64,000 nucleotides of DNA from assembly GCA_964347615.1 (NCBI GenBank), contig CAYFZO010000006.1, positions 4,126-68,125 on the forward strand. Reading direction: 5' to 3'. Origin of the DNA: an uncultured Chromatiales bacterium. GTDB lineage: Bacteria; Pseudomonadota; Gammaproteobacteria; Poriferisulfidales; Oxydemutatoraceae. Both the position numbers and the translations under genes were made by a program. This document shows, in pieces, positions 13,416 to 52,492 of the stretch (position 1 is its first letter; every line of letters begins with the position of its first letter). The notes under the pieces are model-generated. The model did no database searches. It saw only the letters and a list, made by a program, of their open reading frames with translations, and was not told the origin of the DNA.

Positions 13416-13423
13416 AATTACGC

Positions 13424-31097: not shown

Positions 31098-31260
31098 TTT
31101 CCCCTCACCCAATCAACTTAACGTCCGCCCCCTATTCCGCGTCAGGGCGGCAACCGTATAACCGTCAAGTGTCTCAAGGAACCGCTTGGCGGCTCCACTC
31201 AGGATGCCCTCGAGCCGGCATCCGAGCATCGGTGCAGCCCACCACGTCAAGCGTGTTTTC
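31090..31260. repeat. Left copy of an imperfect direct repeat of about 170 bp (about 85% identity) bracketing the 20-kb module. The right copy is at 51,025..51,195.
   Basis: The core 'CGTATAACCGTC.AGT.TCTCAAGGAACCGCTTG.CGGC...GAGCCGGCATCCGAGCATCGGTGCAG' is shared by both copies. The minus-strand translations of both copies are homologous: APMLGCRLEGILSGAAKRFLETLDGYT versus APMLGCRLKGVLNEAVKRFLEILDGYT. Confidence 0.8.
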
Positions 31261-31370
31261 CGTGAGCTACTCGGCGTTTTCGCCCGCGCCGGCTGCTGAT
31301 GAGAGACGCCTTTACACTGAGGGCAGGCTTACGGGATAATCGCCGCAATTCAGAAAACACGGAGACAACG

Positions 31371-38100: not shown

Positions 38101-40558
38101 TGATGCCGTTGAACGTCGCTGGCTCGATGACAATGCCGATTTCCGTGCCCGGGCAAACTTTTTCAGATACGTCCGGGGACCGTTCGGTGATCCAGAAGAA
38201 ACCACCGACGGTAAAAACAGATTTGTGGTTATCCGAGGCAAAACCAATCAGGACCTACATGAAAATTGGCGGCAAGCGCGCAACCACACTGTTAGCTTCA
38301 GCGATCCGAAACATCCATTCCGTCATCAAGGCTCGGCGGATATCAATCTCTATAAACTATTCCTCGAATCTGCCCATGCCTTGTTGGGATTTGGCGGAAG
38401 GTTGGGGTTCATCGTTCCTTCAGGGGTATATTCAGATGACGGAACACAGGCGCTTCGAAAGCTTTTTCTTGACAATTGCCGATGGGAGTGGCTGTTTGGC
38501 ATTGTAAACCGTGAAAACATTTTCCCCATTCATAAAAACTACAAATTCAACCCCGTAATCATTGAAAAAGGCGGAAACACGGAAGCAATCCAAACTGCTT
38601 TCATGCAACGCAATCTCGAAAACTGGGAAAATGCCGAGAGCATCTCTATTTCTTACCCTCAAACGTGGATAAAGCAGTTCAGCCCTAAAAATCGAACTTT
38701 CGTGGAAATTCAATCACAACGTAATTTGGAAATTTTGGAAAAGATATACAACCACAGCATTCTACTAGGTGATAACAGTTCCTCTGGATGGGGCGTTCGT
38801 TACTTTCGTGAATTCGATCAGACAAACGACTCAGAACTCTTCCCACCTCGCCCAGAGTGGGAGAATAAAGGGTATAGACCCGACGAGTACAACCGCTGGT
38901 TGCGAGGCGACTGGCAGCCGATTGAAAACCTCTTGGAGTCTTTAGATATTAATCCAGCCCAGGCCGAACCAGCAGAATTAGAACTTGAAGAGTGGTTGCT
39001 TCACGAGACAAGTTCAGAACGTCAAAAAACCGAAGTCCGACTCGTACGCGGCTATTTGCTCAGACCCGGCGACGTCGCCAGGACCGTTTGGAGTCTACGC
39101 TGCGCGCAGCCACCCTACGACAAACTGCCAATTCCGCGTTCGAAAGTACCTGCTGGAATAATTCTCTCACGAGAGGGTGATACCTATATCCACGTGGATA
39201 AAATCGAAGATATAGCCCTCCCACTTTACGTGGGAAAGATGATTTACGTCGGTGATTGGAACGCATCCACGATTCAGTTAAACGAGTTGAAACAACACAG
39301 CCCCAATCCTGAATACCTTTTAGGTATAAAAGACCTCCGACATAACCGCCAAACAAACAACCGCATCGTTTTCCGTGATGTATCACATGCAACCAATGAA
39401 CGTAGCTTCGTAGCGACTCTCATCCCTGGATTATTTCCCTGCGGGAACAAATTGCCGATACTAAGCTTGCCACCCTACAACCCTGTTCAAAGTCTTGAAT
39501 TAATCAATGCTTTGGTAAGTTTCGGATTCGACTGGGTTGTTCGACAGCGTTTCGCTGGAAATAGCCTCAATTGGCACATTGTCGAACCTTGCCCAGTGCC
39601 GCGCCCGGGTACTAGCACCAACAGAACGATAACGCAGTTGGCAAGGTTATTACTCGGAAACATTCTCTTTTCAAGCGACTGGCTGCAACTTTCGAATCTG
39701 GTTTCGCAGCCTCATTTTTACCCGTGTACTTTCAAAGAAAGGCTTCGTATTACTATTATGCTTGACGCAGTAATGACCGCCACCATGGGGCTTTCGGGGT
39801 CGGATTTTCGACGTATCCTGGCAGGGTGTGATTACCCGGCTGGGAACATCATTGACAAGCAACTAAAAGGTTTCTGGCGCGTGGACAAAGACAAAGCCCC
39901 TGAGCTCCGCCAAACTGTCCTGTCTCTAGTTGCTTTCCAAGACCTCGAAGAGCGAATTAAAGCAGCCAATAACAACGTGGAAAAGGGGATTGATTCTTTT
40001 CTTGCACAAAATCACGGCGAAGGGTGGATGCTGCCGGAAACGTTACGCCTTGCCGACTACGGCCTCGGCCATGACAATCGCGCGAAACAACCACAACCCG
40101 TCGCCAGCCGTCTCCCCGGCCCGCGCTTCTACGATTGGCAACTCGCTCAAAGCCCCAAAGAAGCTTGGCAAGAATGTCATCTCCACGCCCGAAATTTACT
40201 CGGCGCCGATGGTTACGCCCAACACGTTCTGAAACTGATTGAACAACGCGTCTCTAACGATGAAGAGTTTCTTGACCTTCTAACGCTACCGTTTGTGCGT
40301 GATTTCATGAACGAGGATGGTTACACGACGACTATAATCAAACTTCGGGCAAAAAAAATCCTAGACGAGACCGCCTACACCCAACTTCTCGATCATCTTC
40401 GAGCACGTAACCTCTTGGACGAAGTCCGTTATCGTCGCCAACGTGAACGTATTACTTCCACGCCGGAACAGGAGCCTCTGCCGAGAGTAGCCGAGCTCCC
40501 GGCAGACTACGATACCGAAACGCCCTCAAAAGAGAATCAAACAAAGATGTTCGAATAG
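35183..40558 (+). CDS. Giant (1,791-aa) gamma-class N6-adenine DNA methyltransferase (DrmMI/PglX-like) with large N- and C-terminal extensions of unknown function
   Basis: Motif I is 'DPACGSGTFPLAALRFL' at about residue 617. 'IYAVDLDPLAVELCQLSLWIE' follows. Motif IV, 'ILGNPPWD' (NPPW), is at about residue 931. The TTG start overlaps the SNF2 stop. Confidence 0.8.
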   Translation: MSTEQTNADLPGWDSLRHGGLLFDVARLKTLTEFIPPRLNEYVEQQLRHQGSSILNETGDTSTFVTFVLEQVCGLDGSTGTWLRGNNVPSSWGRRAITGETVKPRHLWQGQHDALLPIFIDDKKRIGIGKGRRTISQVLGWLRAGNNQLALITNGRQWRLLFAGLDYDAWCEWDMDMWFEEGGLSPQVTALRTLLNFELWTPKSEDAPPLLLQAIRDTRKGQAELSEELGEQVRKAVEKLIQGHSEALREYHDSVAPADIYRAACRVVMRLIVILFAESRDLLPRENALYHGSYGLNGLFDQLEHSAHHGADLANSWAAWPRILALFNLVRQGSHHPDLPVTAYGGKLFATGRPDPADRASKAIDIFERENQSALFSDRDVHKMLRLLTRTTISIRQGRGVRRSKAPVDFSDLSSEYIGILYEGLLDYELKTAPDDDSVVFLTVGNRPALPLSRLEKMEDGAIRTLFKSLKKKKAVTDDDTSEDSEQESKDVELESKVDELSFDANDVTLYDKNDQLDISRAEAWARRAVQVAKLVKKPLVARVVLPGEWYLVRWGGTRKGSGSFYTRPGLAVPTVQRTLRPLAYDPPPKANGAPDTAARAESWIPKLPEQILDVKTCDPACGSGTFPLAALRFLTDALYKSLQRHERIKRDGERSVIRLLRLHHDKNSTTAGESPFHEELIPCPPDDGDFEPRLKAVLRRHVVERCIYAVDLDPLAVELCQLSLWIETMNRELPFGFLDHKIKCGDALLGAWFDQFQHYPVMAWKNREGGDKNHSEGVHFEKNVRTKKIKDFVKDKLTPDLKLFLRGRDLFQEDTLEIATTAHKESLSVLEKMHKMSVQDTEERARIYHQNFLGRKAWSQIKDAMDLWCACWFWPVDKIEQAPLPSNFAKPPGETLAVAKQTANKMRFFHWELEFPDVFQEQGAGFSAILGNPPWDAPKPISKEFFSDIDPLYRTYGKQEALQYQSRCFKDGDAVERRWLDDNADFRARANFFRYVRGPFGDPEETTDGKNRFVVIRGKTNQDLHENWRQARNHTVSFSDPKHPFRHQGSADINLYKLFLESAHALLGFGGRLGFIVPSGVYSDDGTQALRKLFLDNCRWEWLFGIVNRENIFPIHKNYKFNPVIIEKGGNTEAIQTAFMQRNLENWENAESISISYPQTWIKQFSPKNRTFVEIQSQRNLEILEKIYNHSILLGDNSSSGWGVRYFREFDQTNDSELFPPRPEWENKGYRPDEYNRWLRGDWQPIENLLESLDINPAQAEPAELELEEWLLHETSSERQKTEVRLVRGYLLRPGDVARTVWSLRCAQPPYDKLPIPRSKVPAGIILSREGDTYIHVDKIEDIALPLYVGKMIYVGDWNASTIQLNELKQHSPNPEYLLGIKDLRHNRQTNNRIVFRDVSHATNERSFVATLIPGLFPCGNKLPILSLPPYNPVQSLELINALVSFGFDWVVRQRFAGNSLNWHIVEPCPVPRPGTSTNRTITQLARLLLGNILFSSDWLQLSNLVSQPHFYPCTFKERLRITIMLDAVMTATMGLSGSDFRRILAGCDYPAGNIIDKQLKGFWRVDKDKAPELRQTVLSLVAFQDLEERIKAANNNVEKGIDSFLAQNHGEGWMLPETLRLADYGLGHDNRAKQPQPVASRLPGPRFYDWQLAQSPKEAWQECHLHARNLLGADGYAQHVLKLIEQRVSNDEEFLDLLTLPFVRDFMNEDGYTTTIIKLRAKKILDETAYTQLLDHLRARNLLDEVRYRRQRERITSTPEQEPLPRVAELPADYDTETPSKENQTKMFE

Positions 40559-40596
40559 ATAGAAAGCCAAGAGATCAGATGAAGCTGTTTCGGAAC

Positions 40597-41112
40597 CTAA
40601 CCACCAATCTCTCTGGTGAATCGATTAATTATATCTTCGTTGATGTGCGTAGGGCTAGATTCATGCATTTGGTTAGCAACCGCCAAAGCAGTATGCTGCG
40701 TAAGAACACCAGCAGTAACCAAATCCACCATTAGGGTAAGCCCGAAACGAGTTTTGACGCGATGTTTTTCGCAAAGTCGCTGAAGTGCTCTATCGTTTGT
40801 GACGCACGTCCATCCTCTTTCTTTACAGGTAACGAGGCAAAGGCGGTCATTAAATGAAACGTTTGACTCGACTTCTCCAGCTGCAAGCATTTGTTCTGTC
40901 TCAACTTCGACGACCTCGATACCATAACGACGACACTGAGACACTGATACTCCTCGGACCTCGTCGAGCACGTGCGTCAAAACGGCTATTTGCCCTACGG
41001 ACTGAGTTACGAGTTTTAGAACCTCTAGCTTGGAATCACGGTAGTCTATAAGAACGTCCGCATCCGCAAGAAGCCCAGTTTGTAAGGCCCCGCGTTCAAT
41101 TTGTCCACTCAC
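40597..41112 (-). CDS. PIN-like nuclease-fold protein (DUF4411-like), partner of the HTH-ImmA regulator
   Basis: The N-terminus 'LLADADVLIDY' is a PIN-like first-Asp strand. Further acidic residues follow ('THVLDEVRG', 'VTNDRAL'). Its start overlaps the upstream HTH-ImmA stop. The ImmA-plus-DUF4411 pairing is a recurring defence-island dyad (from memory). Confidence 0.45.
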   Translation of the reverse strand: MSGQIERGALQTGLLADADVLIDYRDSKLEVLKLVTQSVGQIAVLTHVLDEVRGVSVSQCRRYGIEVVEVETEQMLAAGEVESNVSFNDRLCLVTCKERGWTCVTNDRALQRLCEKHRVKTRFGLTLMVDLVTAGVLTQHTALAVANQMHESSPTHINEDIINRFTREIGG

Positions 41113-42229
41113 GCGCCTGTTTCCTCATCTCCTCTCGAGTAATCCTCAATATTTCGGCAGCGCGCCCAAGCGAAATATGCTGCTTCTCGACCGCCCTCCG
41201 CACGAGACGCGATAGGCGATTCTCAACGAAATCGTTATAGGAAAGACCTTCTGGTTCTTCAGATCGGCGCCAGCTCCAAGCAAATTCTCCCGCTTCCAGA
41301 GCGAAAGGCTCGTCGACCTTGCGGAGGGTTTTGCCAAAGCGAGCACGATGCTGCCGTTGAAACGTACGCCAAATTTCAGATTCTGCGCGCTCCGATTCCA
41401 CCAAGCGGTAAAGAACTGTCTTATAACTTACTCGGAAAATTCTCTTGACTTTAAGGACACGAATCAAAAGCGGATGTCCATAAGTTTCATTCCATTCACT
41501 GTTAAATGCTTCCTCCGGCATTAGAAACTCACTTGCGAACGCATCTGCTTCACGTTCTGTATCTGCAGAAAGATCGGTCTCATCACGTTGATACTCCCCA
41601 GGGTGAAGCAATAGATGTCCCAACTCATGTGCTGCGGTAAATATCCAACGCTCCACCGATATTCGGTCCCACCTATTGACAACAATCGCTGGCCCGCCAT
41701 CTTGTTCCCCAGCGCTCAACCCAAAGAAAGAATCCCGCTTTTTGTCCAGAAGCAAGAGTTTTACTCCATTTTTCTCAAGTAATCCACAGATGTCCCGCAC
41801 CGGTTCCTTAGGCCCTAACTCAGCAATCTCACGTACTTTTTGGGCAGCACTTTCAGGTCCTGCACTACGAAAAATCTCAGGGTTAAATTTGAATGGACAC
41901 TGCTCGCCCAGGCTGACTTCCAGACTCTTATAGTCATCCAGCCATTTTGAAACTTCCGCCAAAATTTGCTCTCTCCCATGCACTTGGGTCTTGGCGCGAA
42001 ACCGTACACTCTTGAGAGGACGTACGGGAGTCACGAGAACACCGACCGGAACCGCCAGCGCCTTTGCCAACGCAGTAAGTGTTCCCTCCCGCGGGATGAC
42101 TACACCCCGCTCAATCTTGCCAAGCGCCACCCGTGAAAGCCCCGCCTTATCGGCAAGCTGTTCCTGAGTCAGCTCCCGATCCAAGCGTAACCGCGCTACG
42201 TTTGCGGCAATCCCCGCTCTGTCTTCCAT
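41096..42229 (-). CDS. XRE-family HTH fused to an ImmA/IrrE-family Zn-metallopeptidase
   Basis: The HTH is 'LTQEQLADKAGLSRVALGKIERG'. The HExxH motif is 'FTAAHELGHLLLH'. It is divergently oriented from the Ubl operon. Confidence 0.8.
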   Translation of the reverse strand: MEDRAGIAANVARLRLDRELTQEQLADKAGLSRVALGKIERGVVIPREGTLTALAKALAVPVGVLVTPVRPLKSVRFRAKTQVHGREQILAEVSKWLDDYKSLEVSLGEQCPFKFNPEIFRSAGPESAAQKVREIAELGPKEPVRDICGLLEKNGVKLLLLDKKRDSFFGLSAGEQDGGPAIVVNRWDRISVERWIFTAAHELGHLLLHPGEYQRDETDLSADTEREADAFASEFLMPEEAFNSEWNETYGHPLLIRVLKVKRIFRVSYKTVLYRLVESERAESEIWRTFQRQHRARFGKTLRKVDEPFALEAGEFAWSWRRSEEPEGLSYNDFVENRLSRLVRRAVEKQHISLGRAAEILRITREEMRKQAREWTN

Positions 42230-42252
42230 CTTCGAACTTCGAAAAGCGCCCC

Positions 42253-42281
42253 TTGACAGGCGTTCACCAGTAAGGTATCAT
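42253..42281 (+). promoter_or_regulatory. Candidate sigma-70 promoter for the Ubl/E2/JAB/E1/helicase operon, with TTCGAA repeats immediately upstream
   Basis: The sequence is TTGACA, 17 nt, TATCAT (42,253-42,258 and 42,276-42,281). It lies in the divergent intergenic region between the HTH-ImmA gene and the Ubl gene. 'CTTCGAACTTCGAA' at 42,229-42,246 is a possible operator. Confidence 0.4.
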
Positions 42282-42406
42282 ATCTCCCGAAGTTGTCAAT
42301 ATGAATACTTTCAGATTGGCAGCTATAGGGCCGAACGCTTGGCTGATTGCCGTTTTGCTGTCAGCAGGCTTCGGGATTATACAACAAGCACGGGAGGGAC
42401 CAGATA

Positions 42407-42658
42407 ATGGTTGATCCAGACAAAGTAATCCTCGAAATTGCGGCACCGAAAGGGCTGTTCAAAGGGGAGTTCGAAAAAACTGTTACCGTTCAACAGGTAA
42501 TCGACGCAGTTATAGAAAAACAACAATTGCAGCGCGGCGATGTTTTTGAGCTGTTTTATAAAGGTAAGCAGCTTGAACCAGTAAAACAAACGCTGGCTGA
42601 GTTTAATCTTGCAGGAGTAGTTCAGCTCGAGCTCGTTGCTACCGGTCAAGGAGTATAG
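42407..42658 (+). CDS. Small ubiquitin-like (beta-grasp) protein
   Basis: 83 aa with a GGGAGGGA ribosome-binding site. It is the first gene of an operon that also encodes E2-like, JAB/MPN and E1-like proteins. The C-terminus reads '...LELVATGQGV'. Confidence 0.5.
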   Translation: MVDPDKVILEIAAPKGLFKGEFEKTVTVQQVIDAVIEKQQLQRGDVFELFYKGKQLEPVKQTLAEFNLAGVVQLELVATGQGV

Positions 42659-42664
42659 CGATCC

Positions 42665-43123
42665 ATGGCAACGGTATCTGAGTTGATTCTCGGTGAAGAG
42701 TTCGGTCATTTGCGCGAGATAGCCGAAGCTCGTAACTGGCCTCTCAGTCAAGTCAACAAGCGTACATTTAAGCTCACGCTTACAGCACGTGATGATGCCC
42801 GCTTCAGCTTATTGGTTAGCTGCAGCGATTACCCGCAAAAACCACCGGCTTGGCACTGGTGTAATCCTGAAACGGATGCTCTGGACCAAAAAAGCGATAC
42901 GCCGAAAGGGACTGGAGGATATTTTGACCAGTCGGGTTGCATTTGTGCGCCTTGGAACAGGCTCGCCTATCAGCAAGAGAACCCTGAAGGCCCTCACCCA
43001 GATTGGAATCTTGTGAACTGGAGGACAAATGATTGGACAAAAGGATGCACCACGCTGTCCGCAATGGCGTCACGTATCGCGGTCGAACTCATGAGCGATC
43101 GTTACCGAGGCCGGGAAATCTGA
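42665..43123 (+). CDS. E2-like (UBC-fold) candidate conjugating protein
   Basis: 152-aa protein lying between the Ubl and JAB genes. 'QSGCICAPWN' is a candidate catalytic Cys loop. The assignment is mainly by operon context. Confidence 0.35.
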   Translation: MATVSELILGEEFGHLREIAEARNWPLSQVNKRTFKLTLTARDDARFSLLVSCSDYPQKPPAWHWCNPETDALDQKSDTPKGTGGYFDQSGCICAPWNRLAYQQENPEGPHPDWNLVNWRTNDWTKGCTTLSAMASRIAVELMSDRYRGREI

Positions 43124-43128
43124 GATAA

Positions 43129-43650
43129 ATGCTTGAACGAATAAAAAAGTTGTTTTTTCGTAAACGAGTTTTCAAACCTGGTCCGCCAGAACCACCTAGA
43201 TTGATTTTAGCTCAATCCAGTGTGACTGCTCTACGGTCTTGCATGAAACCGGAAATTCGAAAAAAACACGAAAGTATCGCTTACCTTCTGGGTCAGACTA
43301 ACTCTACGACAACTTTGGTTGTGAGTGTAATCCGACCTCAGGCCCAAACCACACCGGGGAGCTTCAAGGTCGAGTCCGTAGCAATGATACGAATTATGCG
43401 TGCAGCTGTCCGTCTTGGACTTCAGGTAGTTGGACAAATACATACCCATCCTAGGAAAGCATTTCACAGCGAAGGAGACGAGGAAGGAGCACGTATTGCC
43501 TATAGCGGCTACGCTTCGATCGTGTTGCCTGATTATGGGCGACGCCTCCCCTCGTTCAAAGGAGCAGTTGCCTACATGTTCCAGACTAACAGCGGCTTTA
43601 TACCAATCGCTCCAGATTGCTTCGTGATCGTGCCGGGAAAAACATCGTGA
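43129..43650 (+). CDS. JAB/MPN+ (JAMM) metalloprotease / deubiquitinase-like
   Basis: The JAMM motif is 'GQIHTHPRKAFHSEGDEEG' (H-x-H-x7-S-x2-D). An upstream Glu lies in 'FKVESVAMIR'. Confidence 0.7.
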   Translation: MLERIKKLFFRKRVFKPGPPEPPRLILAQSSVTALRSCMKPEIRKKHESIAYLLGQTNSTTTLVVSVIRPQAQTTPGSFKVESVAMIRIMRAAVRLGLQVVGQIHTHPRKAFHSEGDEEGARIAYSGYASIVLPDYGRRLPSFKGAVAYMFQTNSGFIPIAPDCFVIVPGKTS

Positions 43651-44996
43651 ACGGGGAAGACTGGAGAAGGGAACGTGACAGTCGTTCCTTGCTCTATGCG
43701 GGGCGAGTACTCGACCGTAATCGGTGGGTGTCGCTGTGTCCTGATCCACGTTACGTGTCGCGTTACGATGGGCAAGTGGCGCTTCTGACCGCGGCGAATC
43801 TCCTTGGTCGAATGACCCCCAGTATTGCGTTGGATATTCCTGATTCAATCCCCATCGTTGATTCTCTACCTAATGCCGGGAAGAACTTGCGTGACGTGTT
43901 GCTTGACCAGCTTCATGAAGCAGATCCTTCTGGGAGTTTCTGTCGCCGCTCATATAAACCGGATGACTACATCATCAGATTCGGTAAGACCGGCGGCGTC
44001 AATACAGTGCACGGGTCGGGCTGGAAAATGTACTGCGGCCCAAGCCCATCACCTTTGGCAGAAACCGAAACGGTAAATCCAATTGGCCCAGCAATGGCTT
44101 CTATTCTTGCTGTAAGTGAAGCTTTCCGAACAAATCTTACTTCACCTCCCGGACAATACACTTTCGATGCTCTAACTTGGACTTCTGACGTAAAAGATGA
44201 AAGTGATGCTCCACTTCCTACTCAGTCGAAGCTCGGAGAAGTTTGGGTTGTTGGTACTGGCTCAGTTGGAACAGCGGTACTCTATTTTTTGAGCCTTGCT
44301 ACACGGAATTTTTCCGCGGTTCTTTTCGACATGGATATAGTCGAAATTCACAATCTGGATCGATCTCCTATATTCACGAGTAACGATGCGGATAATAAAA
44401 CAAACAAAGCAATAGCGACAAAAAGATATCTAAACCAAGTAGGAGTTTCTAACGTCAAAGCCGAACCACACGCCCTTGATGAATCCGATATCTGGAAAAA
44501 CCGTCAGCCAGGTACCCCCGACGTTTTAGTCCCGACCGCAAACGAGCGTAATGTGCGTTCCCTTATCGAAAGTTACTTTCCGCCAATCCAAGTTTACGGA
44601 ACCACGGGGCAGAACGGACAAGCCACAATGATTCGTCATATTCCCCCGCATGATCCATGTTCGCTTTGCCTATTTCCTGACACTGACCACGCACCAACGA
44701 GTTGCGCGATCGGTAAAGTTGAGAATGAAAGTAATGAAAAGAAAATTGATGCGGCGCTCCCTTTTCTATCCTTTGCTGCAGGAGCAATGGCCGTCGCCGA
44801 AATTCTAAAACTCAGCCTGCCTGATTATCCAGCCAATAGAAGTAACCGAACAATCTTGTACACAGGCTGTCCACCCCGTTTCACATCTGGACAATTATCT
44901 TTCAGAGATGGTTGCCCATGCCGGCAACGTAACTACGACCTTTATCGAAAAATAACCGAGAACACCTGCTTTTCCCACTTGATGCGTTTCTCATGA
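43617..44996 (+). CDS. E1-like ThiF/MoeB-family activating enzyme
   Basis: The Rossmann nucleotide-binding motif is 'VWVVGTGSVGTAVLYFL', with 'FDMDIVEIHNLDRS' after it. A C-terminal Cys pair lies in 'PHDPCSLCLFPDTDH...SCAIG'. Its start overlaps the JAB gene. Confidence 0.7.
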   Translation: MLRDRAGKNIVNGEDWRRERDSRSLLYAGRVLDRNRWVSLCPDPRYVSRYDGQVALLTAANLLGRMTPSIALDIPDSIPIVDSLPNAGKNLRDVLLDQLHEADPSGSFCRRSYKPDDYIIRFGKTGGVNTVHGSGWKMYCGPSPSPLAETETVNPIGPAMASILAVSEAFRTNLTSPPGQYTFDALTWTSDVKDESDAPLPTQSKLGEVWVVGTGSVGTAVLYFLSLATRNFSAVLFDMDIVEIHNLDRSPIFTSNDADNKTNKAIATKRYLNQVGVSNVKAEPHALDESDIWKNRQPGTPDVLVPTANERNVRSLIESYFPPIQVYGTTGQNGQATMIRHIPPHDPCSLCLFPDTDHAPTSCAIGKVENESNEKKIDAALPFLSFAAGAMAVAEILKLSLPDYPANRSNRTILYTGCPPRFTSGQLSFRDGCPCRQRNYDLYRKITENTCFSHLMRFS

Positions 44997-45027
44997 TTTC
45001 GTAGTTTAGGCACTCAATCGGCCAACA

Positions 45028-48000
45028 ATGTATTATCGGCTGGTTTGGAACTTTCAAAGTGCTGTATTTCCAATGGCTTTAAACCCCATCGCTTACACGG
45101 AAAGCGTCGTCCGTAGTTTTCTGCGTTACCAACTTACGGCGTACCCTTTCGCTGACCAAAGATTGCACGAACAGATGTGCAAATTGCTGTCTCTTAACGA
45201 AACTCGTCAGTCTCCCCTCCTCAAAGGCCCCTACGTCAGCTTATCGCGCTCATTCCGGCAAGGCGCTTCAGTCGCGTCTTTAGTGAAAGAAAGGCTGCTA
45301 CACCCTCACTTACAACAACGTATTCGCAACGAAGTTACACATCTCTATAGTCATCAAGAAAAAGCGATCCGTGCTATTGCGAAGAAGCAGACAACCCTCG
45401 TATCCACCGGAACCGGTTCAGGCAAAACCGAATGCTTCCTCTATCCCATCATTAGCCAATGCCTGAAACTCAGGGATGAAAAAGCATCCCCCGGTATTAG
45501 CGCGGTCATTGTCTATCCGATGAACGCATTGGCGGAAGATCAGCTCATGCGATTACGCGGCCTGTTGGCAGGCACTGGAATTCCATTTGGGATTTATGTA
45601 GGCAAGACACCTGAGAATGAAGCCGATGTGACTGGCGTTAAATTGCATGATGGGGCGTCACGGGATGATTACGAAACCCGGCTGAAACGAGCACAACAAG
45701 AAAGCAGCGGCGAGACGGTTTATCCAGCAGAAGAGGTTTGTTCACGGGAGGTTATGCGCACAGAAGGCAAACAGCCACGAATTCTCTTAACCAACGTGAA
45801 GCAGCTTGAGCTGCTGCTGACGCGGCAGATAGATATTCAACTGTTCGCTAATGCTCGACTGGATTTTCTGGTATTCGATGAGGCTCATACGTTCACTGGG
45901 GCGCTAGGAGCGGAAACAGCCTGCCTAATCCGGCGCCTGCGTGCATTCTGTGACATCAATATAAACCACACTACATGCGTCGCTACCTCAGCAACGATCG
46001 TTGATAAGGAAGAGCCTGACGCCGCCCGAAAATTCGCCGCACGATTTTTCGGCGTTCCACGCGAAGCAGTAACTACAGTTAATGAAGACTACGAAAAAGA
46101 CGTTTGGGAAGAGCCACGGTTTGTTCCCACTGCTCCCCCTGAAAAAGCTGCCGATATTCTCAGCAACTGTATTGAGGCAGTTGAAGACGAAGACAATTCA
46201 AACGCTGAAAAAATAGAGGCAATCTATCGTGCGTTAACCGGCGAGGGCCTGCCCGAAAGAAACTGGCCGGAAGCCCTGCACAATGCTATGTCTCGCAATG
46301 ATCTGGTTTTTCGCTTGAACGAGGAGCTCCATACCCCGAGGGAGCTGGCGGAATTACCAGCAGCACTTGAACGGCATATCGACCGCCCTGTAGCTGAGGA
46401 AGAAATTCTTGCTTGGCTGACGTTAGGGGCGGCAGCACGCAAGCAAGGTCGACCTTTATTACGCCCCATCGTACATAACTTCGTACGCGGCATCAGCGGC
46501 GCCGTGGTGACATTTCCTAAAGATATGAATAGCCCGAAGCTATGGCTCGCTGCAAAAGACGAGGGTGAGATTGAACCTGACACGTCTGAAGATAAACATG
46601 CGCATTTTCCTGTAACGACCTGTACTACTTGTGGACAGCACTACTTCATTGCGTTCCTAAAAGACTTCTCTTTCACCGGAAACGTGCCTGAGGGCGGTGA
46701 AACCAGCTCCACCGGCCCTTGGTGGTCTTCGAAAGAAGAAACTTTGGGTGGTAAACGCGTTGTTCTAGTAGACAAATTGATTGGAGAAAGTGACGAAGAC
46801 GAGGACACGTCTCCTCATGCGAAGATGGCACCACTCTATTTCTGTCGCCGATGCGGAACAGCACACCTTGAAACACAGTCACGATGCCTTTGCTGTGGAT
46901 ATGAAAATGGTACGGTTCAGCTGCACGCAGTCCGCCAGAAGGAAAAAAATCCTGGCAAACTGGCCAGCTGCCTTTCTTGTGGTTCTACCAGTCGTCGACT
47001 CGGCGGGGATTACCGCGAACCAGCCCGGCCCGTGCGTGCAGTTAACGTGGCGGACGTGCACGTTCTCACCCAAGACATGGTGCACCACGCAGAACGACGT
47101 CGTCTGCTCGTATTCTGCGATAACCGGCAGGACGCGGCATTTCAAGCTGGCTGGATGAAAGACCGCGCCCGACGTTTCAGGTTACGAGCGTTAATGATGG
47201 AAAACATCAAAAAAAGCGCGTGCTCCGTAGGCGATTTGGCCGGGCATCTCGATAAGTTAATGGAAAAAGATGAAACCCTTTCACGAGCGTTGCTTCCTGA
47301 GGTATGGCGCGTTGCACGTCGAGAAGACAGCGGTACCCGCCACCAACAGGAACGCTACAAGTTTCTTCGCTTCCAAGTATTGCGCGAAGTTACACTGCCG
47401 TCACGACAAGCGGTTGGTCTCGAGCCATGGGGCCGCATGAAAATCGAATACACGGGGCTCGACGCGGTGCTACCATGGATTCAGAAGCATGCTCATTCCC
47501 TAAGCCTCCCCCCAGATGGCTTGCGGGAAGGCGTCGCAAGCGTACTCGACTACTTGAGACGAAGAGGGGTGCTGTATGACCCTGAGAATGAGATATTTAC
47601 GAAATACTGGGGAAAAGGAGACCTTGAGATCCAGCGTGGGTACTTACCCGACTCTATTCGACCCAACTCCACCAAGCTACAGCGCCAAGCAGATGAAAAA
47701 CGGGAAGTAATTATTCAATGGATAAGCGACAGGGGCAGCCCAACGGTACCCCAAATCGTCAAGAAATGGGGGGCAGAGAAAAACGCAATCAAACCACTTT
47801 TGGAAAGCTTGTTTCAATTCTTAAAGGAAAACAAACTACTAGTGCCTGTACGACTTAAAGGTTACAAAGGCCGCGCGCTCCCAAAGGTACACGGCGTCTA
47901 CCAAGTAAATAGCGACAAATTACTGTTGACTCCGAACAAAGGCATGAGACGTTGTCGTAGCTGTCGCCGCACTACCACTCGGAACTTACCTTACGACCAC

Positions 48001-51000
48001 TGCCCTGCCCGGAATTGCAACGGAACTTTGGAATGGGTGCCGGAAGATCCAGACAACTATGATTTGCATCTGCTCGATAGCGCATACGAAATGCTGCGTC
48101 CGGAAGAACACACTGCTATGGTCCCATCTGAGGACCGCGAACGTTTTGAGAACTTGTTTAAGGGTGAATCAGAGGCAGTAAATTGTCTGGTGTGTACCCC
48201 AACGTTGGAACTAGGAATTGATATCGGGCGACTCGACTCAGTCCTGATGCGCAACGTACCCCCGTTGCCGGCAAATTATTGGCAGCGCGCCGGACGCGCC
48301 GGACGGCGACATCGCATGGCGGTGAATGTCACCTATTGCCGACCAGTCTCACACGACCGTGCCTACTTCTCAGAGCCGCCTAAATTGCTGGCAGGCAGGA
48401 TTGACCCTCCGGCATTTAATCTAAGAAACGAAGTGATGGTCGAAAAACACGTTCACGCAATAATCATCGCCTCTTTGTATCGCTATTGTCATGATAACGC
48501 TAGACCAGAAGCGGAACGTAACACGATACAGGAAACTTTGCTCAATTGTTTTCCCTCGTTTATCTCGCCTTATCTATTCGATGACAATGAAGAAGTACGG
48601 ACAACGCTGTTCGGCTTCACTTCCTTACGCGATTTAGTTCAGGAAAACTATCAAGCATTGGTCACCGACGTGCAACGTGTGTTTGAGCAAGGATGGCCAG
48701 AGACGGATGCCGACGTTGTAACCCAAGAAGCTCTTTCTGCCTACGTCGCCAAATTCGCCGATAACTTGGAAAACGTCGTCAAACGTTTGCAGCGCCGTCT
48801 GCGTTGGGCTATGAACCAGATTCAGCGCCTCAATAATCACCGTCAGAGCCAGGGAACGCTTTCCCGTGAGGATGAAACGCTATTCCGCCGTTGCGACAAT
48901 CTGGTAAAACGACTAAAAGGCACGAGCTGGAGACGACGAAGCCGAGCGGAAGGGCACTACGACTCGAACACGTTCAGCGTGCTCTCAGCGGAGGGATTCC
49001 TGCCGGGTTACGGCCTGGAAGTCGGCTCGATAAGAGGTGAAGCGGAAATTCCACCCTGGCTCCCCGGAGCTAAGAGTTTTTCTTTACCTCGACCGCCTGC
49101 AATCGCTCTACGTGAATACGTTCCTGGCAATCTCATCTATGCCAACGGACAACGTTTTGTCGCGCGTCACTTTCGCCGCGAGGCAGGCGAGGAATATTCA
49201 GAGATGCCGTGCTACGAAGTATCAATTGACCACCAAGCCGTTAAGCCCGTTAGTTTAAATGCACCCTCGTCATTAGGCGGATACGTCCTCCAAACAATAT
49301 CCGTCTGTGATACGGACTTAATTCATACTTCACACATATCCGACGAAGAAGAATTTCGGTTTCAATTAGGCTTAGCTATTTACGGATTGGAAATCAAGCA
49401 GCACAACGGCGGAATCTCATATCGTTGGGGAGAAAAAACCATGCAACATCGCCGTGGAGTACATATACAACTTGTCAACGTAGGGGCTTTGCTCGCCATC
49501 CGCAAAGGAGAAATTGGTTATCCTGTCTGCACGGTATGCGGCCAAAGTATCTCCCCTATTTCCTCTGACAGACAGCACCAAGAGTTTGTTAAAGATCACA
49601 AGGAACGTTGTGGACGTGAGCCAAAATCTATCGGTTTCTATACCAACGTAGTTGCCGACGCGCTTTCGCTGCCTGAGTGTGACAACTTGGAAATCGCGTA
49701 CAGCGTCTTAGAGTCTTTGCGCTTCGCCGCTACTAGAGTACTTGACATGCATACGGAAGACTTGCAGGTGCTTGTTATAGGACACGTTGAACGAGACGGC
49801 GTAGATGCTTTGTTATGGGATCCAATGCCTGGTGGATCCGGGCTGCTTGACCGCGTGTGTGAACGCTTTGATGAAATCGTGCAAGCAGCTAAAGAAATCG
49901 TTAGTGATTGTCCCGCAGTATGTGACTCATCCTGCATAGATTGCCTTCAGACGTTCCGCAACGCTTATTACCATGAGCACCTCAATCGCCATACAGCCCA
50001 AACACGATTGGAAGAATGGGGAGAACAGCTGGTACGCCGTCACGATATTCCACCGTTGCAACAAAACATTGCCTCCAGCAAAAATGCAATGCCGGTTAAC
50101 GAGGCAGAAACCAAGCTGCGGCACCTGCTACTCGCCGCTGGATTTGACGAAGGCATCCGAGACGAACAGATTCAGTTAGATCGAGCAATAGGAACTACAA
50201 CACCTGACGTAATCTACCGAACGGAAACCGATGGAACAGACGAAGGTGTATGTATTTATTTGGACGGATTGAGTGCACATATCCATGGCAACCCAAAAAC
50301 CGCTGAGAAAGACAGGGAAATCCGGGATTGGTTACGCAATAGAGGATATGAGGTCATTGAAATCACCGCTAACCAGTTAGACGATGAAGATGCAATGACA
50401 CGTCACTTTCGCCGCCTCGCAAGATATTTGCAGATGCCAGATACATTAAGCCGGCTGCGTGATGATCACTCGTGGTTTCGCCAATCTAAAAAGGCATCAG
50501 TTTCTCCTTTGCGATTGGTTACACCGACACCTGAAACGCGTTATGTCACCTGCGTGCCTCTAGTCCCCTTGCAGATTGCCGCAGGGACGTTTGGCGATCC
50601 CAATGCCGCTCCCGACGAATCCGAATGGCAGTGGGTAAAACTTAACTCAGTACGCACGCTGCGCCCTGGAATGTTTGTTGCTGCCGTAACTGGAAAATCT
50701 ATGGAGCCAAAAATACCCGATGGCTCATACTGCCTTTTTTCCGGCCCTGTCACTGGGACGCGGCAAGAAAAAATCGTGCTTGCTCAAATGCACGACACGA
50801 TTGACCCTGAAACCGGGGCCAGGTTTACTGTAAAACGCTATCGGAGCACGAAAGGGGAAAACGACGATGGCTGGCGACACATCAAAATCACCCTTGAACC
50901 TATTAACCCTGACTATCAACCGATTGAGTTAGCGACGGATAACGAGAACTCCGTCACAGTAGCCGCGGAACTGGTTAGCGTTCTTGGCCAAGACGCTCCT

Positions 51001-51024
51001 GTAGATGATACGGATTCTCTCTAA
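45028..51024 (+). CDS. Giant (1,998-aa) multidomain protein. Domains in order: DEAD/DEAH SF2 helicase with multiple Zn-ribbon insertions, a DUF1998 (MrfA/DrmA-B)-like region, a DUF559/Vsr-like nuclease-fold region, and a C-terminal LexA/S24 peptidase domain.
   Basis: Motif I 'VSTGTGSGKTECF' is at about residue 126, motif II 'VFDEAHTF' at about 281, and motif VI 'QRAGRAGRR' at about 1,086. CxxC pairs are present ('CTTCGQ', 'CRRCG...CLCCG', 'CLSCG', 'CRSCRR...CPARNC', 'CTVCGQ...C'). 'GVCIYLDGLSAHIHGNP...EIRDW...YEVIEI' is at about residue 1,740. The C-terminus reads 'PLVPLQIAAGTFGDP' followed by 'TGKSMEPKIPDGSY...KR', the S24 Ser/Lys dyad. Confidence 0.8.
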   Translation: MYYRLVWNFQSAVFPMALNPIAYTESVVRSFLRYQLTAYPFADQRLHEQMCKLLSLNETRQSPLLKGPYVSLSRSFRQGASVASLVKERLLHPHLQQRIRNEVTHLYSHQEKAIRAIAKKQTTLVSTGTGSGKTECFLYPIISQCLKLRDEKASPGISAVIVYPMNALAEDQLMRLRGLLAGTGIPFGIYVGKTPENEADVTGVKLHDGASRDDYETRLKRAQQESSGETVYPAEEVCSREVMRTEGKQPRILLTNVKQLELLLTRQIDIQLFANARLDFLVFDEAHTFTGALGAETACLIRRLRAFCDININHTTCVATSATIVDKEEPDAARKFAARFFGVPREAVTTVNEDYEKDVWEEPRFVPTAPPEKAADILSNCIEAVEDEDNSNAEKIEAIYRALTGEGLPERNWPEALHNAMSRNDLVFRLNEELHTPRELAELPAALERHIDRPVAEEEILAWLTLGAAARKQGRPLLRPIVHNFVRGISGAVVTFPKDMNSPKLWLAAKDEGEIEPDTSEDKHAHFPVTTCTTCGQHYFIAFLKDFSFTGNVPEGGETSSTGPWWSSKEETLGGKRVVLVDKLIGESDEDEDTSPHAKMAPLYFCRRCGTAHLETQSRCLCCGYENGTVQLHAVRQKEKNPGKLASCLSCGSTSRRLGGDYREPARPVRAVNVADVHVLTQDMVHHAERRRLLVFCDNRQDAAFQAGWMKDRARRFRLRALMMENIKKSACSVGDLAGHLDKLMEKDETLSRALLPEVWRVARREDSGTRHQQERYKFLRFQVLREVTLPSRQAVGLEPWGRMKIEYTGLDAVLPWIQKHAHSLSLPPDGLREGVASVLDYLRRRGVLYDPENEIFTKYWGKGDLEIQRGYLPDSIRPNSTKLQRQADEKREVIIQWISDRGSPTVPQIVKKWGAEKNAIKPLLESLFQFLKENKLLVPVRLKGYKGRALPKVHGVYQVNSDKLLLTPNKGMRRCRSCRRTTTRNLPYDHCPARNCNGTLEWVPEDPDNYDLHLLDSAYEMLRPEEHTAMVPSEDRERFENLFKGESEAVNCLVCTPTLELGIDIGRLDSVLMRNVPPLPANYWQRAGRAGRRHRMAVNVTYCRPVSHDRAYFSEPPKLLAGRIDPPAFNLRNEVMVEKHVHAIIIASLYRYCHDNARPEAERNTIQETLLNCFPSFISPYLFDDNEEVRTTLFGFTSLRDLVQENYQALVTDVQRVFEQGWPETDADVVTQEALSAYVAKFADNLENVVKRLQRRLRWAMNQIQRLNNHRQSQGTLSREDETLFRRCDNLVKRLKGTSWRRRSRAEGHYDSNTFSVLSAEGFLPGYGLEVGSIRGEAEIPPWLPGAKSFSLPRPPAIALREYVPGNLIYANGQRFVARHFRREAGEEYSEMPCYEVSIDHQAVKPVSLNAPSSLGGYVLQTISVCDTDLIHTSHISDEEEFRFQLGLAIYGLEIKQHNGGISYRWGEKTMQHRRGVHIQLVNVGALLAIRKGEIGYPVCTVCGQSISPISSDRQHQEFVKDHKERCGREPKSIGFYTNVVADALSLPECDNLEIAYSVLESLRFAATRVLDMHTEDLQVLVIGHVERDGVDALLWDPMPGGSGLLDRVCERFDEIVQAAKEIVSDCPAVCDSSCIDCLQTFRNAYYHEHLNRHTAQTRLEEWGEQLVRRHDIPPLQQNIASSKNAMPVNEAETKLRHLLLAAGFDEGIRDEQIQLDRAIGTTTPDVIYRTETDGTDEGVCIYLDGLSAHIHGNPKTAEKDREIRDWLRNRGYEVIEITANQLDDEDAMTRHFRRLARYLQMPDTLSRLRDDHSWFRQSKKASVSPLRLVTPTPETRYVTCVPLVPLQIAAGTFGDPNAAPDESEWQWVKLNSVRTLRPGMFVAAVTGKSMEPKIPDGSYCLFSGPVTGTRQEKIVLAQMHDTIDPETGARFTVKRYRSTKGENDDGWRHIKITLEPINPDYQPIELATDNENSVTVAAELVSVLGQDAPVDDTDSL

Positions 51025-51195
51025 CCCCCTCACCTATCAGCTTCAACACCCACTCCCTATTCCACGTCAGATCGGCAATCGTATAACCGTCGAGTATCTC
51101 AAGGAACCGCTTGACGGCCTCATTCAGGACGCCCTTGAGCCGGCATCCGAGCATCGGTGCAGTCCGCCGCGTCACGAGCGTCTCGTGCAATCAGC
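51025..51195. repeat. Right copy of the imperfect direct repeat of about 170 bp (see 31,090..31,260)
   Basis: It overlaps the last codons of the giant helicase gene. It carries an intact start of a minus-strand ORF fragment (50,975..51,190, 'MHETLVTRRTAPMLGCRLKGVLNEAVKRFLEILDGY...'). Confidence 0.8.
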
Positions 51196-51295
51196 CCCCG
51201 GTCTATCCTTAATCGCGCAACGTTGGCGGCAATCGGTGTTTTGCTTGTCATCTGGCGCAACAATTATCCGCTGATTTCAGTTCACTTTTCGCGCG

Positions 51296-52492
51296 TTACA
51301 GCAAATACTTAGAGATATCTACATTGTCACAACCTGATTTTGCCTTCATAAACCACTTATCGCCATCCTTAGAAATCCAAATATGCCAAAACGGTCGGTC
51401 AGGCTTTTCTGTTTGGTGCACTTTCTCAAGTAACAGAAGAAAATCAGAGCGCGGTATAGCAAACAGCGTCTTCACACTGCCGCACCCTAATATGAAATAA
51501 GATTCCTCCACCTCTTCCAAAAACGCTTTGTGTCGTGCGCGAGGTGTAAACCAAAAACTTTCGCCCTGAAACTGTTTTGATACTTTGCAGATTACACCAT
51601 ATTTGCGGTCAGACGATGACCAAACGGCTCTCGTCCGACGAACAAGCCTAGACGGAAAATTCTTTTTTTCTTCAAAACGAGCAAGACATTCCTCGTGAAA
51701 AGAAGCAGGTTTACCACCTTTTCTCGAAGACTCACTTTCTGCATCAGGCTCCTCTTCTTCCACGTCTGTAACCACTTCCGCATCAAGCTCCTCTTCTTCC
51801 ACGTCTGTAACCACTGAAAGAAGCAAATCTGAGATTTTGTCAAGCTTCGTGAACTCTTCAGGAATCAATACACTTCTTACCTTAGAAAAAACAGACTCAT
51901 CCTCCATTTTTTCCTTCAACTCCGCAAGCGCCAGTAACGAGGACACGCTGATCAAACGCATATCCCAGGCATAGCGTGATCCTCGTATCTGACTTTCCAA
52001 ACTATCCGTTTCGTCTCTGCCTACCACCAGTAAGAAAGAAATATCTTCCTTGCTAAAGCTTTTTTCTTTAGAGATGAGATCATCCCGATAACGAGCAAGA
52101 GTTTCGAGATTTAAGTTGTACACGTCGGTTGTCTTTACTTCGACGATAATTGATTCTCCACTCGACAATTTCCATAAACCATCATACCCCACCTCGTTTC
52201 TCACTCCCCGGTATCTCCCGTTCTCAACTTCAAAGTCCAGTCGCCGACCCACTTCGTTGATTATGTCTTGCAATGCAAATCCTAAGTTTACGTGCTTTTG
52301 CACCGGCAATAGACAACACTCTTCCGCATACTCTTTGAGTTTGGCGAGAGGGATGATTTGAAGGAACTCCCGAAACTCTTGGGATGTTCCGTTGTTGTCT
52401 GCGAGTTTGCCGTCGCCGGCAATCCCAATAACTGGTGGAAGGCGTTTCCCCTCCAACGCGCCTTCGTTCCAAAGATCAACTAGTCGCAGCAT
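51296..52492 (-). CDS. Protein with an N-terminal Mrr-like PD-(D/E)xK nuclease motif and an internal acidic tandem repeat
   Basis: 'VGYDGLWKL...ESIIVEVKTTD' is a D...ExK motif, Mrr_cat-like. A duplicated 'VVTDVEEEE(L/P)DAE' tandem repeat lies in the middle. The C-terminal domain is unknown. Confidence 0.4.
   Translation of the reverse strand: MLRLVDLWNEGALEGKRLPPVIGIAGDGKLADNNGTSQEFREFLQIIPLAKLKEYAEECCLLPVQKHVNLGFALQDIINEVGRRLDFEVENGRYRGVRNEVGYDGLWKLSSGESIIVEVKTTDVYNLNLETLARYRDDLISKEKSFSKEDISFLLVVGRDETDSLESQIRGSRYAWDMRLISVSSLLALAELKEKMEDESVFSKVRSVLIPEEFTKLDKISDLLLSVVTDVEEEELDAEVVTDVEEEEPDAESESSRKGGKPASFHEECLARFEEKKNFPSRLVRRTRAVWSSSDRKYGVICKVSKQFQGESFWFTPRARHKAFLEEVEESYFILGCGSVKTLFAIPRSDFLLLLEKVHQTEKPDRPFWHIWISKDGDKWFMKAKSGCDNVDISKYLL

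Follow-up and report, generated by a model that had tools for sequence, protein, structure and literature searches.

The 64,000-nucleotide stretch of DNA analysed here (hereafter the window; contig CAYFZO010000006.1 of an uncultured Chromatiales bacterium) carries a four-gene ubiquitin-like (Ubl) conjugation cassette directly followed by a giant helicase gene. With a probability of roughly 70%, we read this locus as an ARMADA type I defence system that holds an autonomous Bil-like cassette in a variable cargo slot between its genes ArmB and ArmC, the cassette probably being co-transcribed with ArmC under DNA-damage control. The observations behind this reading are the identities of the genes, the boundaries of an insertion, a cassette-helicase junction that is not conserved in either direction, a promoter that is conserved with other cargo, and intact genes whose ratio of nonsynonymous to synonymous divergence (dN/dS) lies below 1. 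On the best reading, the Bil-like cassette and ARMADA have a common address and probably a common regulator, but no common mechanism. The preliminary description of this DNA had proposed a new, coupled Ubl-helicase system. That proposal did not hold, as the helicase and its two partner genes form a described system (ARMADA type I), the junction occurs in one lineage only, and the closest relative of ArmC is free of the insert. Its remark that such an arrangement had not been seen described stands in part: no paper linking ARMADA or YprA helicases to ubiquitin-like systems was found in the literature searched, and the nested Bil-in-ARMADA arrangement is itself undescribed, but it is a singular arrangement of known parts.

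The cassette consists of the following genes.

42407-42658, plus strand: BilA-like Ubl, 83 amino acids (aa), one predicted beta-grasp domain, ending in ATGQGV; the ATG is preceded by GGAGGG
42665-43123, plus strand: BilB-like E2, 152 aa (PADLOC BilB, fold model, invariant Cys94 in ICAPWN and His111 in GPHPDW)
43129-43650, plus strand: BilC-like JAB/JAMM peptidase, 173 aa (Pfam Prok-JAB, PADLOC BilC, conserved motif)
43647-44996, plus strand: BilD-like E1, 449 aa, GTG start (ThiF, BilD and BilD_N matches)

As first described, these are four consecutive, tightly joined genes. Spacers of 6 and 5 nt separate Ubl from E2 and E2 from JAB, respectively, and JAB and E1 overlap by 4 nt (GTGA, spanning the JAB stop codon). 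The profile searches that the preliminary description had proposed matched ThiF, BilD, Prok-JAB, BilC and BilB, with the Ubl remaining below the cut-off. The E1 matches Pfam ThiF at 9.6e-17 and PADLOC BilD at 3.2e-17, and BilD_N is among its precomputed Pfam matches. Searched against the PDB, the E1 family profile finds the Ensifer aridi E1 (BilD, 8tyz) at the top with 3.8e-9, ahead of ThiF and of the NEDD8 and SUMO E1s. The family keeps an invariant GTGSVGT nucleotide loop (GxGxxG), a CxxC...CxC zinc site (C338/C341/C423/C425) and Cys353, which is probably the thioester cysteine. An alternative TTG start (459 aa) was set aside, as that version is not on record and the deposited protein begins at the GTG. 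The JAB peptidase is matched by Pfam Prok-JAB (1.1e-7) and PADLOC BilC (1.4e-14). Its motif HTHPRKAFHSEGD, conserved across homologues, reads HxHx6Sx2D (E48...H105-x-H107-x6-S114-x2-D117), which corrects the HxHx7Sx2D spacing given earlier.

For the E2, the sequence-level evidence is weak. PADLOC BilB is matched at 1.4e-6, the family profile has no match in the PDB, and its hhalign comparison with E. aridi BilB is not significant (probability 1%, E=0.057). Since these tests against the PDB and E. aridi BilB gave nothing, the identity of the E2 is settled only by structure prediction. The AlphaFold2 model, based on 54 homologues, has a mean predicted local distance difference test score (pLDDT) of 94.8, and its top three PDB matches in Foldseek are E2(BilB) chains of 8tz0/8tyz (probability 1.00, template modelling score 0.56-0.64), followed by human Ube2W. 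Both Cys94 and His111 are invariant in the 54 sequences. The evidence for the fold of the Ubl is weaker than that for the E2. The Ubl matches Pfam ubiquitin (E=3.8e-4) and Rad60-SLD (E=4.4e-4), in each case short of Pfam's curated cut-off. A profile of 27 homologues, in which G80, G82 and V83 are invariant and the family end is G-x-G-V, matches almost only ubiquitins in the PDB, and neither ThiS nor MoaD. The single-sequence model (pLDDT 66.8) has a beta-beta-alpha-beta-beta order, and its Foldseek matches to ubiquitin and NEDD8 are weak, nearly all matches being ubiquitin-like. Of the two folds that the preliminary description had suggested, the UBC/BilB-like fold of the 152-aa protein is confirmed by prediction, and the beta-grasp fold of the 83-aa protein is modelled with moderate confidence only.

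The preliminary description had also named sulfur-carrier biosynthesis genes (ThiS/MoaD-ThiF/MoeB type) as what these genes might be instead of a conjugation system. The E1 profile does match PDB entries of ThiF (7e-8) and MoeB (1.3e-4), as any E1-like adenylating enzyme would, but its best matches are to BilD (in PADLOC and as 8tyz) and BilD_N. Moreover, the E1 is accompanied by a JAB peptidase and a BilB-like-fold E2 with invariant Cys and His, the Ubl profile matches ubiquitin instead of ThiS or MoaD, and no thiamine or molybdopterin genes lie nearby in this low-GC defence island. The matches of E1, E2, JAB and Ubl dismiss the sulfur-carrier explanation, which is effectively refuted; what the four small genes encode is a Bil-type conjugation cassette of Ubl, E2, JAB and E1.

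With BilABCD the cassette has in common the Ubl-E2-JAB-E1 order on one strand (order and spacing being repeated in dozens of relatives), an upstream divergent CapH/CapP-type regulator, a multidomain E1 with BilD_N and ThiF, a UBC-fold E2 with Cys and His that is nearest to BilB, a JAMM peptidase, and a Ubl with a C-terminal Gly. Bil type I (Collimonas; Millman 2022 / Hör 2024) has a two-domain, ISG15-like BilA ending in Gly. The window proteins are close in size to the type I PADLOC models, but membership in type I is excluded by the single-domain, 83-aa Ubl, which ends in G-Q-G-V with an invariant terminal Val. Bil type II (Ensifer aridi CEHH/6C) has a CEHH-type E2 of ~200 aa and a 535-aa E1, and the conserved Gly of its Ubl is followed by at most 9 residues that the JAB peptidase cuts off (Chambers et al. 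2024, PMC11601596). The window Ubl resembles type II in its conserved Gly with a short overhang of one residue. Membership in type II is excluded by the type and size of the E2 (152 aa, lacking the CEHH Glu/His, no significant profile match to E. aridi BilB) and by the size of the E1, which has 449 aa and matches 8tyz at only 3.8e-9. The analysis also brought out a Bil-like subfamily of considerable size, drawn mostly from metagenomes, whose Ubl has one domain and ends in G-x-G-V; it comprises 530 E1 clusters at E<=1e-5, and its cassettes are normally stand-alone.

The host system of the cassette is made up of three genes, the last of which has two further C-terminal segments.

31929-35186, plus strand: ArmA, SNF2/BrxHII/DrmD-like helicase, 1085 aa (PADLOC DrmD 8.3e-202, BrxHII 1.9e-70; Pfam SNF2-rel_dom, Helicase_C)
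35183-40558, plus strand: ArmB, PglX/DrmMI-like N6-adenine methyltransferase, type IIG-like, 1791 aa (PADLOC REase_MTase_IIG E=0, DrmMI 2e-126; Pfam Eco57I)
45073-51024, plus strand: ArmC, ARMADA type I YprA/DruE-like helicase, 1983 aa, with DUF1998/MZB, Vsr-like segment and C-terminal S24 (Pfam, PADLOC, PDB)
50092-50433, plus strand: putative Vsr-type PD-(D/E)xK nuclease segment of ArmC (TTTPDVIYR ... CIYLDGLSAHIHG ... GYEVIEI)
50572-50961, plus strand: LexA/UmuD-like S24 peptidase domain of ArmC (QIAAGTFGD, GKSMEP, FTVKRY)

ARMADA type I consists of the BrxHII-like helicase ArmA, the PglX-like methyltransferase ArmB and the YprA-like helicase ArmC with a Vsr nuclease (Bell et al. 2025, bioRxiv 10.1101/2025.09.15.676423). 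By their strong profile matches, the SNF2 helicase, the PglX-like methyltransferase and the giant helicase of the window correspond to these three core genes; ArmC also has a Vsr-like motif towards its C-terminus. ArmC was placed in the type I clade through a homologue as proxy, not by a tree: the helicase of locus L038 (MEKT01000042.1) is 62% identical to ArmC over residues 1-1976 and is entered as 'ARMADA Type I helicase' in Table S1 of Bell et al. 2025 (bioRxiv 10.1101/2025.09.15.676423). ArmA is kept 5' of the helicase in many relatives. The gene order ArmA-ArmB-ArmC is the minority order for ARMADA type I according to the same preprint. The type II marker ArmD (GajB-like/RelE) is not present 3' of ArmC, where the next gene is a 398-aa minus-strand open reading frame (ORF). 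The window differs from published ARMADA type I in the conserved S24/LexA-like domain at the C-terminus of ArmC and in the regulator module and Bil-like cassette between ArmB and ArmC; cargo within the operon is absent from the account of Bell et al. 2025.

The locus also resembles other defence systems. The best PADLOC matches of ArmC are DruE models, and the SNF2/methyltransferase pair had rightly been called DISARM-like, with ArmA matching DrmD and ArmB matching DrmMI. The ARMADA class was set up to account for just such resemblances to Druantia and DISARM (Bell et al. 2025, bioRxiv 10.1101/2025.09.15.676423). Membership in Druantia was rejected, as there are DruE-like matches only and no partner (DruABCD, DruM/F/G, DruH) among the annotated neighbours. 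DISARM class 1 was rejected as well: DUF1998/MZB is fused within the helicase, and there is neither a separate DrmB nor the PLD nuclease DrmC.

ArmC contains the Pfam domains DEAD, Helicase_C, MZB/DUF1998 and Peptidase_S24, and its strongest PADLOC match is DruE1 (3.4e-118). Its best solved relative in the PDB is a 2108-aa DEAD/DEAH helicase (9tu7, 1.9e-46), and YprA/MrfA (6znp) is matched at 1.7e-27. The start is most likely the ATG at 45073, judging from the alignment with the closest relative, since position 45028 falls within a leader conserved with locus L082, whose gene starts at the aligned ATGGCT, and gene callers agree. This corrects the 1,998-aa length and the 31-bp gap after the E1 gene given earlier to 1983 aa and 76 bp, respectively. 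The earlier reading of ArmC as a helicase-nuclease-S24 protein is borne out by Pfam for the helicase and the S24 peptidase. Its nuclease part has no Pfam support and depends on the conserved Vsr-like motif and a weak top profile match (3r3p, E=0.33); phmmer found no match to this domain in the PDB, and Pfam at E up to 5 gave nothing relevant. The S24 domain is matched by Pfam Peptidase_S24 at 8.5e-9 in the whole protein and at 3.9e-10 in the segment alone. The Ala-Gly site (QIAAGTFGD), the Ser (GKSMEP) and the Lys (FTVKRY) are kept in all S24-bearing homologues examined. S24 is fused to most of the close ARMADA type I ArmC proteins (homologues P0002-P0120), and a sister group of ~1800 aa lacks it. 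An S24 domain on ArmC is mentioned neither in the ARMADA preprint nor in its tables, and no paper describing an S24-bearing ArmC was found in the literature searched. That a large clade of ArmC helicases conserves such a LexA-like domain, its dyad and cleavage site both intact, suggests a testable self-cleavage switch on an effector that combines a helicase with a putative nuclease.

The space between ArmB and ArmC holds, besides the Bil-like genes, a regulator module and the leader of ArmC.

40597-41112, minus strand: VapC-like PIN-domain gene, 171 aa (Pfam PIN 1.4e-7), in an operon with the regulator
41096-42229, minus strand: CapH-CapP fusion regulator, 377 aa, XRE-type helix-turn-helix (HTH) plus M78 (ImmA/IrrE) metallopeptidase (Pfam HTH_3 5.5e-13, Peptidase_M78 2.6e-17)
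42240-42310, unstranded: divergent promoter/operator region of the regulator module (promoter scan, conserved block)
44972-45072, plus strand: native ArmC leader with a weak promoter-like site, TAGGCA-18-TATTAT at 45007-45036 (aligns with the ArmB-ArmC intergenic region of L082)

The boundaries of the insertion emerge from comparison with the closest relative of ArmC (78% identity, L082/L083), in which ArmA, ArmB and ArmC are contiguous, with a 242-bp gap and no insert. Homology between the window and L082 stops at ~40562, just past the ArmB stop codon. It resumes at ~44972, within the last ~8 codons of the E1, and from there extends across the native ArmC leader as far as the ATG at 45073. 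Relative to L082, the insert measures ~4.4 kb and comprises the PIN gene, the CapH-CapP fusion regulator and the Bil-like genes, the Bil-like cargo occupying ~42311-44971. An SDH_protease gene lies just 3' of the module in L082.

The only other copy of the nested locus, L084, is 97.6% identical to the window in nucleotide sequence. Divergence between the two over 36794-52492 is mosaic: synonymous divergence (dS) amounts to 0.10-0.12 in ArmB and the PIN gene, 0.085 in the E1, 0.04 in ArmC and 0.015 in the regulator, and the 398-aa gene at 51296-52492 shows zero differences. This mosaic suggests recent recombination within the locus. The genes from ArmB through ArmC align gap-free and without in-frame stops, with dN/dS of 0.49 (Ubl), 0.27 (E2), 0.18 (JAB), 0.33 (E1) and 0.13 (ArmC), all from few substitutions. 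These values are consistent with purifying selection on the cassette and ArmC genes. Pseudogene decay in L084, suggested by fragmentary gene calls, is ruled out by the lack of in-frame stops and dN/dS <1.

To follow the junction from both sides, two sets of loci, mostly from metagenome-assembled genomes, were surveyed. The helicase survey covered 80 genomic loci with ArmC relatives of 56-70% identity from many phyla; the E1 survey covered 80 metagenomic loci, obtained by an alignment-based metagenome scan (a scan with the E1 protein alone found nothing), of which 33 have at least 2 kb of downstream sequence. No Bil-like Ubl, E2, JAB or E1 was found in the helicase-relative loci (0/80 by tblastn, 0/80 by family hidden Markov models), and no YprA-type helicase lies beside the E1 in the loci with sufficient downstream sequence (0/33). 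A conserved Ubl-operon neighbourhood of the helicase, for which the preliminary description had proposed a survey, is thus absent in both directions, and the Bil-ArmC junction is present only in the window locus and its L084 copy. Among the E1-relative loci the order Ubl-E2-JAB-E1 is conserved. The three closest E1 relatives (59-60% identity) belong to stand-alone units of a divergent CapH/CapP pair and the four genes, followed at the 3' side by pyruvate kinase, a toxin-antitoxin pair or transposases.

The slot itself is variable. Among the 80 helicase relatives, the ArmB-ArmC gap ranges from 88 bp to >9 kb, and the 457 ORFs within these gaps fall into 346 clusters. The cargo includes AbiEi/AbiEii, DarG (DarTG), HEC-03-like ATPases, PDC-S01, PDC-S68 and Schlafen/AlbA_2 ATPases, and further a KAP NTPase with NACHT-LRR, a GHKL-type enzyme, a Phd antitoxin and 6a; Bub is also among the listed cargo.

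The regulator module is the part of the insert that recurs. The fusion regulator matches PADLOC RmrA (3.4e-38), capP (1.5e-18) and capH (8.6e-7). It is 65-71% identical to its counterparts in nine other ARMADA loci and 26-37% identical to the regulators beside other Bil cassettes; on these identities it belongs to the ARMADA lineage. Copies of the PIN gene, 60-63% identical, accompany the regulator in L004, L017, L018, L051 and L078. A vapC-like gene with a CapH-CapP fusion is known from DISARM-type systems, and CapH/CapP from 6a and 6e Ubl operons (Lau et al. 2022, bioRxiv 10.1101/2022.04.27.489752); CapH/CapP also accompany 15% of type II Bil operons and 31% of Bub operons (Chambers et al. 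2024, PMC11601596). The window module resembles the fusion form of Lau et al. 2022 in combining an XRE HTH and M78 in one protein, in its divergent transcription and in its vapC-like PIN gene. It differs in sitting between ArmB and ArmC instead of 5' of the whole operon, so that it would control only the cargo and ArmC.

Within the divergent region, a plus-strand promoter TTGACA-17-TATCAT at 42253-42281 scores 11/12 and overlaps a minus-strand promoter-like site at 42305-42277. The promoter block is conserved in L004, L008, L015, L017, L018, L025, L032, L051 and L078 despite different downstream cargo, with homology stopping at ~42310. As promoter-like sites are no commoner in the region than in shuffled sequence, this conservation across nine loci is better evidence for a promoter than the consensus match. 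The promoter at 42,253 reported in the preliminary description is therefore present and conserved, but it belongs to the CapH-CapP regulator module and not to the Bil genes. In these nine other loci the promoter and its regulator are directed at ArmC, with as little as 754 bp of cargo in between, which suggests that the conserved promoter serves ArmC in this sub-lineage.

It could be objected that the cassette and ArmC are neighbours only, transcribed separately, with ArmC served by a promoter in its own leader; location in a defence island would then be all that they have in common. The ~100-bp leader conserved with L082 does carry the TAGGCA-18-TATTAT site, and defence genes are densely packed in the window, where type I-G CRISPR-Cas, HEC-01 and a second CapP-like regulator are also found. 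The leader site, however, scores just 9/12, and such sites are equally common in shuffled sequence. No terminator-like site separates the E1 from ArmC (none is predicted on the plus strand between 44316 and 45097), and the same regulator and promoter face ArmC across other cargo. We regard this separate-transcription explanation as unlikely. The single operon proposed earlier is plausible with respect to co-transcription of E1 and ArmC, but the adjacency of the two genes is not conserved.

We postulate the following course of events for a nested, co-regulated cassette. The slot would contribute a damage-responsive regulator module (vapC-like PIN gene and CapH-CapP fusion with its divergent promoter/operator) and a self-contained Bil-like cassette placed between the regulator promoter and the native ArmC leader. 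By analogy with characterised families, the CapH part would repress the promoter. Single-stranded DNA (ssDNA) or DNA damage would activate the CapP peptidase part and relieve repression, as proposed from the work of Lau et al. 2022, and the Bil genes, followed by read-through into ArmC, would be transcribed together. The JAB peptidase would then remove Val83 and expose Gly82 of the Ubl, which the E1 would adenylate and bind as a thioester, probably through Cys353. From there the Ubl would move to Cys94 of the E2 and finally to a target lysine, most likely of a phage structural protein, as in characterised Bil systems. ArmC would independently attack unmethylated phage DNA, and its S24 domain may add a RecA/ssDNA-triggered self-cleavage switch.

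Ubl-type cassettes other than the Bil-like one also occur near ArmC relatives. They are of two kinds, 6a (L017, L047, L078) and Bub type I (L006, L009, L010, L022, L059, L060, L074). In two Vicinamibacterales genomes, a 6a-type operon lies between the same type of CapH-CapP fusion regulator and ArmC (L017 4978-9224, L078 5166-9669); it consists of an MBL-like gene, an E2(Prok-E2_A)-E1-JAB triple fusion and a ~250-aa gene without matches. The Bub type I (6E.1) operons, found in several phyla, contain Prok-E2_E, a JAB-E1 fusion, DUF6527, an SDH/ClpP-like protease and a CapP-like gene. Like the window cassette, 6a and Bub type I (Lau 2022; Chambers et al. 2024, PMC11601596) are CapH/CapP-associated Ubl-type cassettes at the same or nearby positions by ArmC. 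They have other architectures, however, Bub chemistry involves oxyester intermediates, and neither occurs in the window. The position of the cassettes varies, as they lie upstream or downstream of ArmC, on either strand and 0-7 kb away. They track CapP-type regulators, being present in 7/17 loci with such a regulator versus 3/63 without (odds ratio 14, p=5e-4, shared ancestry ignored). We read them as cassettes that have a regulator type in common and were exchanged or co-selected at a damage-responsive promoter.

Several points nevertheless weigh against an autonomous cassette that shares no more than its address and regulator with ARMADA. Other Ubl-type cassettes lie within ~10 kb of ArmC in 10/80 loci, a high share for systems this rare. 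The 6a cassettes of L017 and L078 sit in the very same regulator-to-ArmC slot (the copy in L047 lies 7 kb upstream). The recurrent Ubl-ArmC neighbourhood, which we treat as regulatory or recombinational, could reflect a functional affinity. By its sequence features, the cassette belongs to a distinct Bil-like subfamily that fits neither described type cleanly. ArmC may also be transcribed alone from the weak leader site, and the RecA/ssDNA-triggered self-cleavage switch that the S24 domain may provide is drawn purely by analogy.

A rival reading is the functional coupling proposed in the preliminary description, in which the ARMADA helicase and the Ubl cascade would work as a single machine. 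Ubl attached to ArmC might, for instance, activate, inhibit or relocalise it, or ArmC might give the E2 a signal or access to its substrate. In favour of this reading, the cassette and ArmC lie side by side on the same strand and no terminator is predicted between them, three Ubl cassette families (Bil-like, 6a, Bub type I) lie near ArmC in 11/81 loci from several phyla, and the identical slot is used by 6a in L017 and L078. In L009 (4359-9962), the capP gene ends 36 bp before the ArmC start and the Bub operon is divergent from capP. Against this, the Bil-ArmC junction is confined to one lineage; the nearest relative of ArmC has no Bil genes beside it, and the nearest Bil relatives have no ArmC beside them. 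The remaining Ubl cassettes keep to no one side, strand or distance, and they track CapP-type regulators, CapH/CapP being known separately with DISARM-type systems and with Bil, 6a and Bub. At its right end, moreover, the insertion truncates or replaces the E1 tail in the native ArmC leader, which resembles an accident, not a designed junction. On balance, we consider functional coupling improbable, and nothing in this analysis speaks for ArmC as a conjugation substrate.

A broader version of this idea is a long shot: S24-bearing ARMADA type I helicases might be partnered repeatedly and functionally with CapH/CapP-controlled Ubl modules (Bil-like, 6a, Bub type I), so that the cargo slot would not be neutral. 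The Ubl machinery would then have as its target either ArmC itself or the phage DNA-protein intermediate that ArmC generates, and S24 would tie both to RecA/ssDNA signalling. It is raised here because 11/81 loci carry one of the three Ubl-cassette types nearby, two of the types in the identical slot. We take this loose, recurrent neighbourhood of Ubl cassettes and ArmC as a modest lead.

If the nested, autonomous cassette is the correct reading, the window provides a boundary-mapped case of one defence system nested in the operon of another, 3' of a common damage-responsive promoter. The ArmB-ArmC junction would be a hotspot for diverse cargo (AbiE, DarTG, HEC-03, PDC-S01, 6a, Bub, Bil-like), which would help the annotation of defence islands and warn against taking operon adjacency as a common mechanism. 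The interest of the locus rests on this hotspot, the S24 fusion, the Bil-like subfamily and the loose Ubl-ArmC neighbourhood.

The whole ArmA-to-ArmC module is bracketed by a direct repeat.

31101-31256, unstranded: 156-nt direct repeat, left copy (family D1, 81% identity to 51026-51181)
51026-51181, unstranded: 156-nt direct repeat, right copy, directly after the ArmC stop codon

The copies of this repeat are 81-84% identical and have a common minus-strand frame (...APMLGCRLxGxLxxAxKRFLExLDGYTxAxLT...), and gene calling reads the right copy as an ORF of 59 aa that overlaps the stop codon of ArmC. The repeat was seen only in the window locus and L084, and it may represent a gene fragment duplicated upon insertion or recombination of the ARMADA module. 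At the module edges, the 194-aa ORF at 31299-31883 (plus strand) and the 398-aa ORF at 51296-52492 (minus strand) gave no match in Pfam or PADLOC. The latter contains a 39-nt tandem duplication at 51737-51814. G+C content is ~49% over ~29-52.5 kb of the window and ~64% in the flanks. No Rfam families or tRNA genes were found in or beside the island, and hence no tRNA-linked integration site.

The window contains further defence genes. Just 5' of the module, at 29141-31097 (plus strand), lies a HEC-01-like candidate defence pair, namely an AAA_21/AbiEii-type ATPase (PADLOC HEC-01A 1.2e-191) followed by a DUF4276 protein. The type I-G (I-U) CRISPR-Cas effectors Cas5/6g (730 aa), Cas7g, Cas8g and Cas3g (905 aa) are encoded at 11223-18136 (minus strand), in a second low-GC stretch of ~45% G+C. 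Adjoining these genes, a second RmrA/CapP-like regulator of 385 aa (19770-20927, minus strand; capP 1.1e-15) means that the defence island contains two CapP-type regulators. A 63-nt G+C-rich repeat is present in two copies, 95 nt apart, in the high-GC sequence that adjoins the island on the left (28275-28432), and a related 20-mer is found at 53078, just right of the island (families D2, D4).

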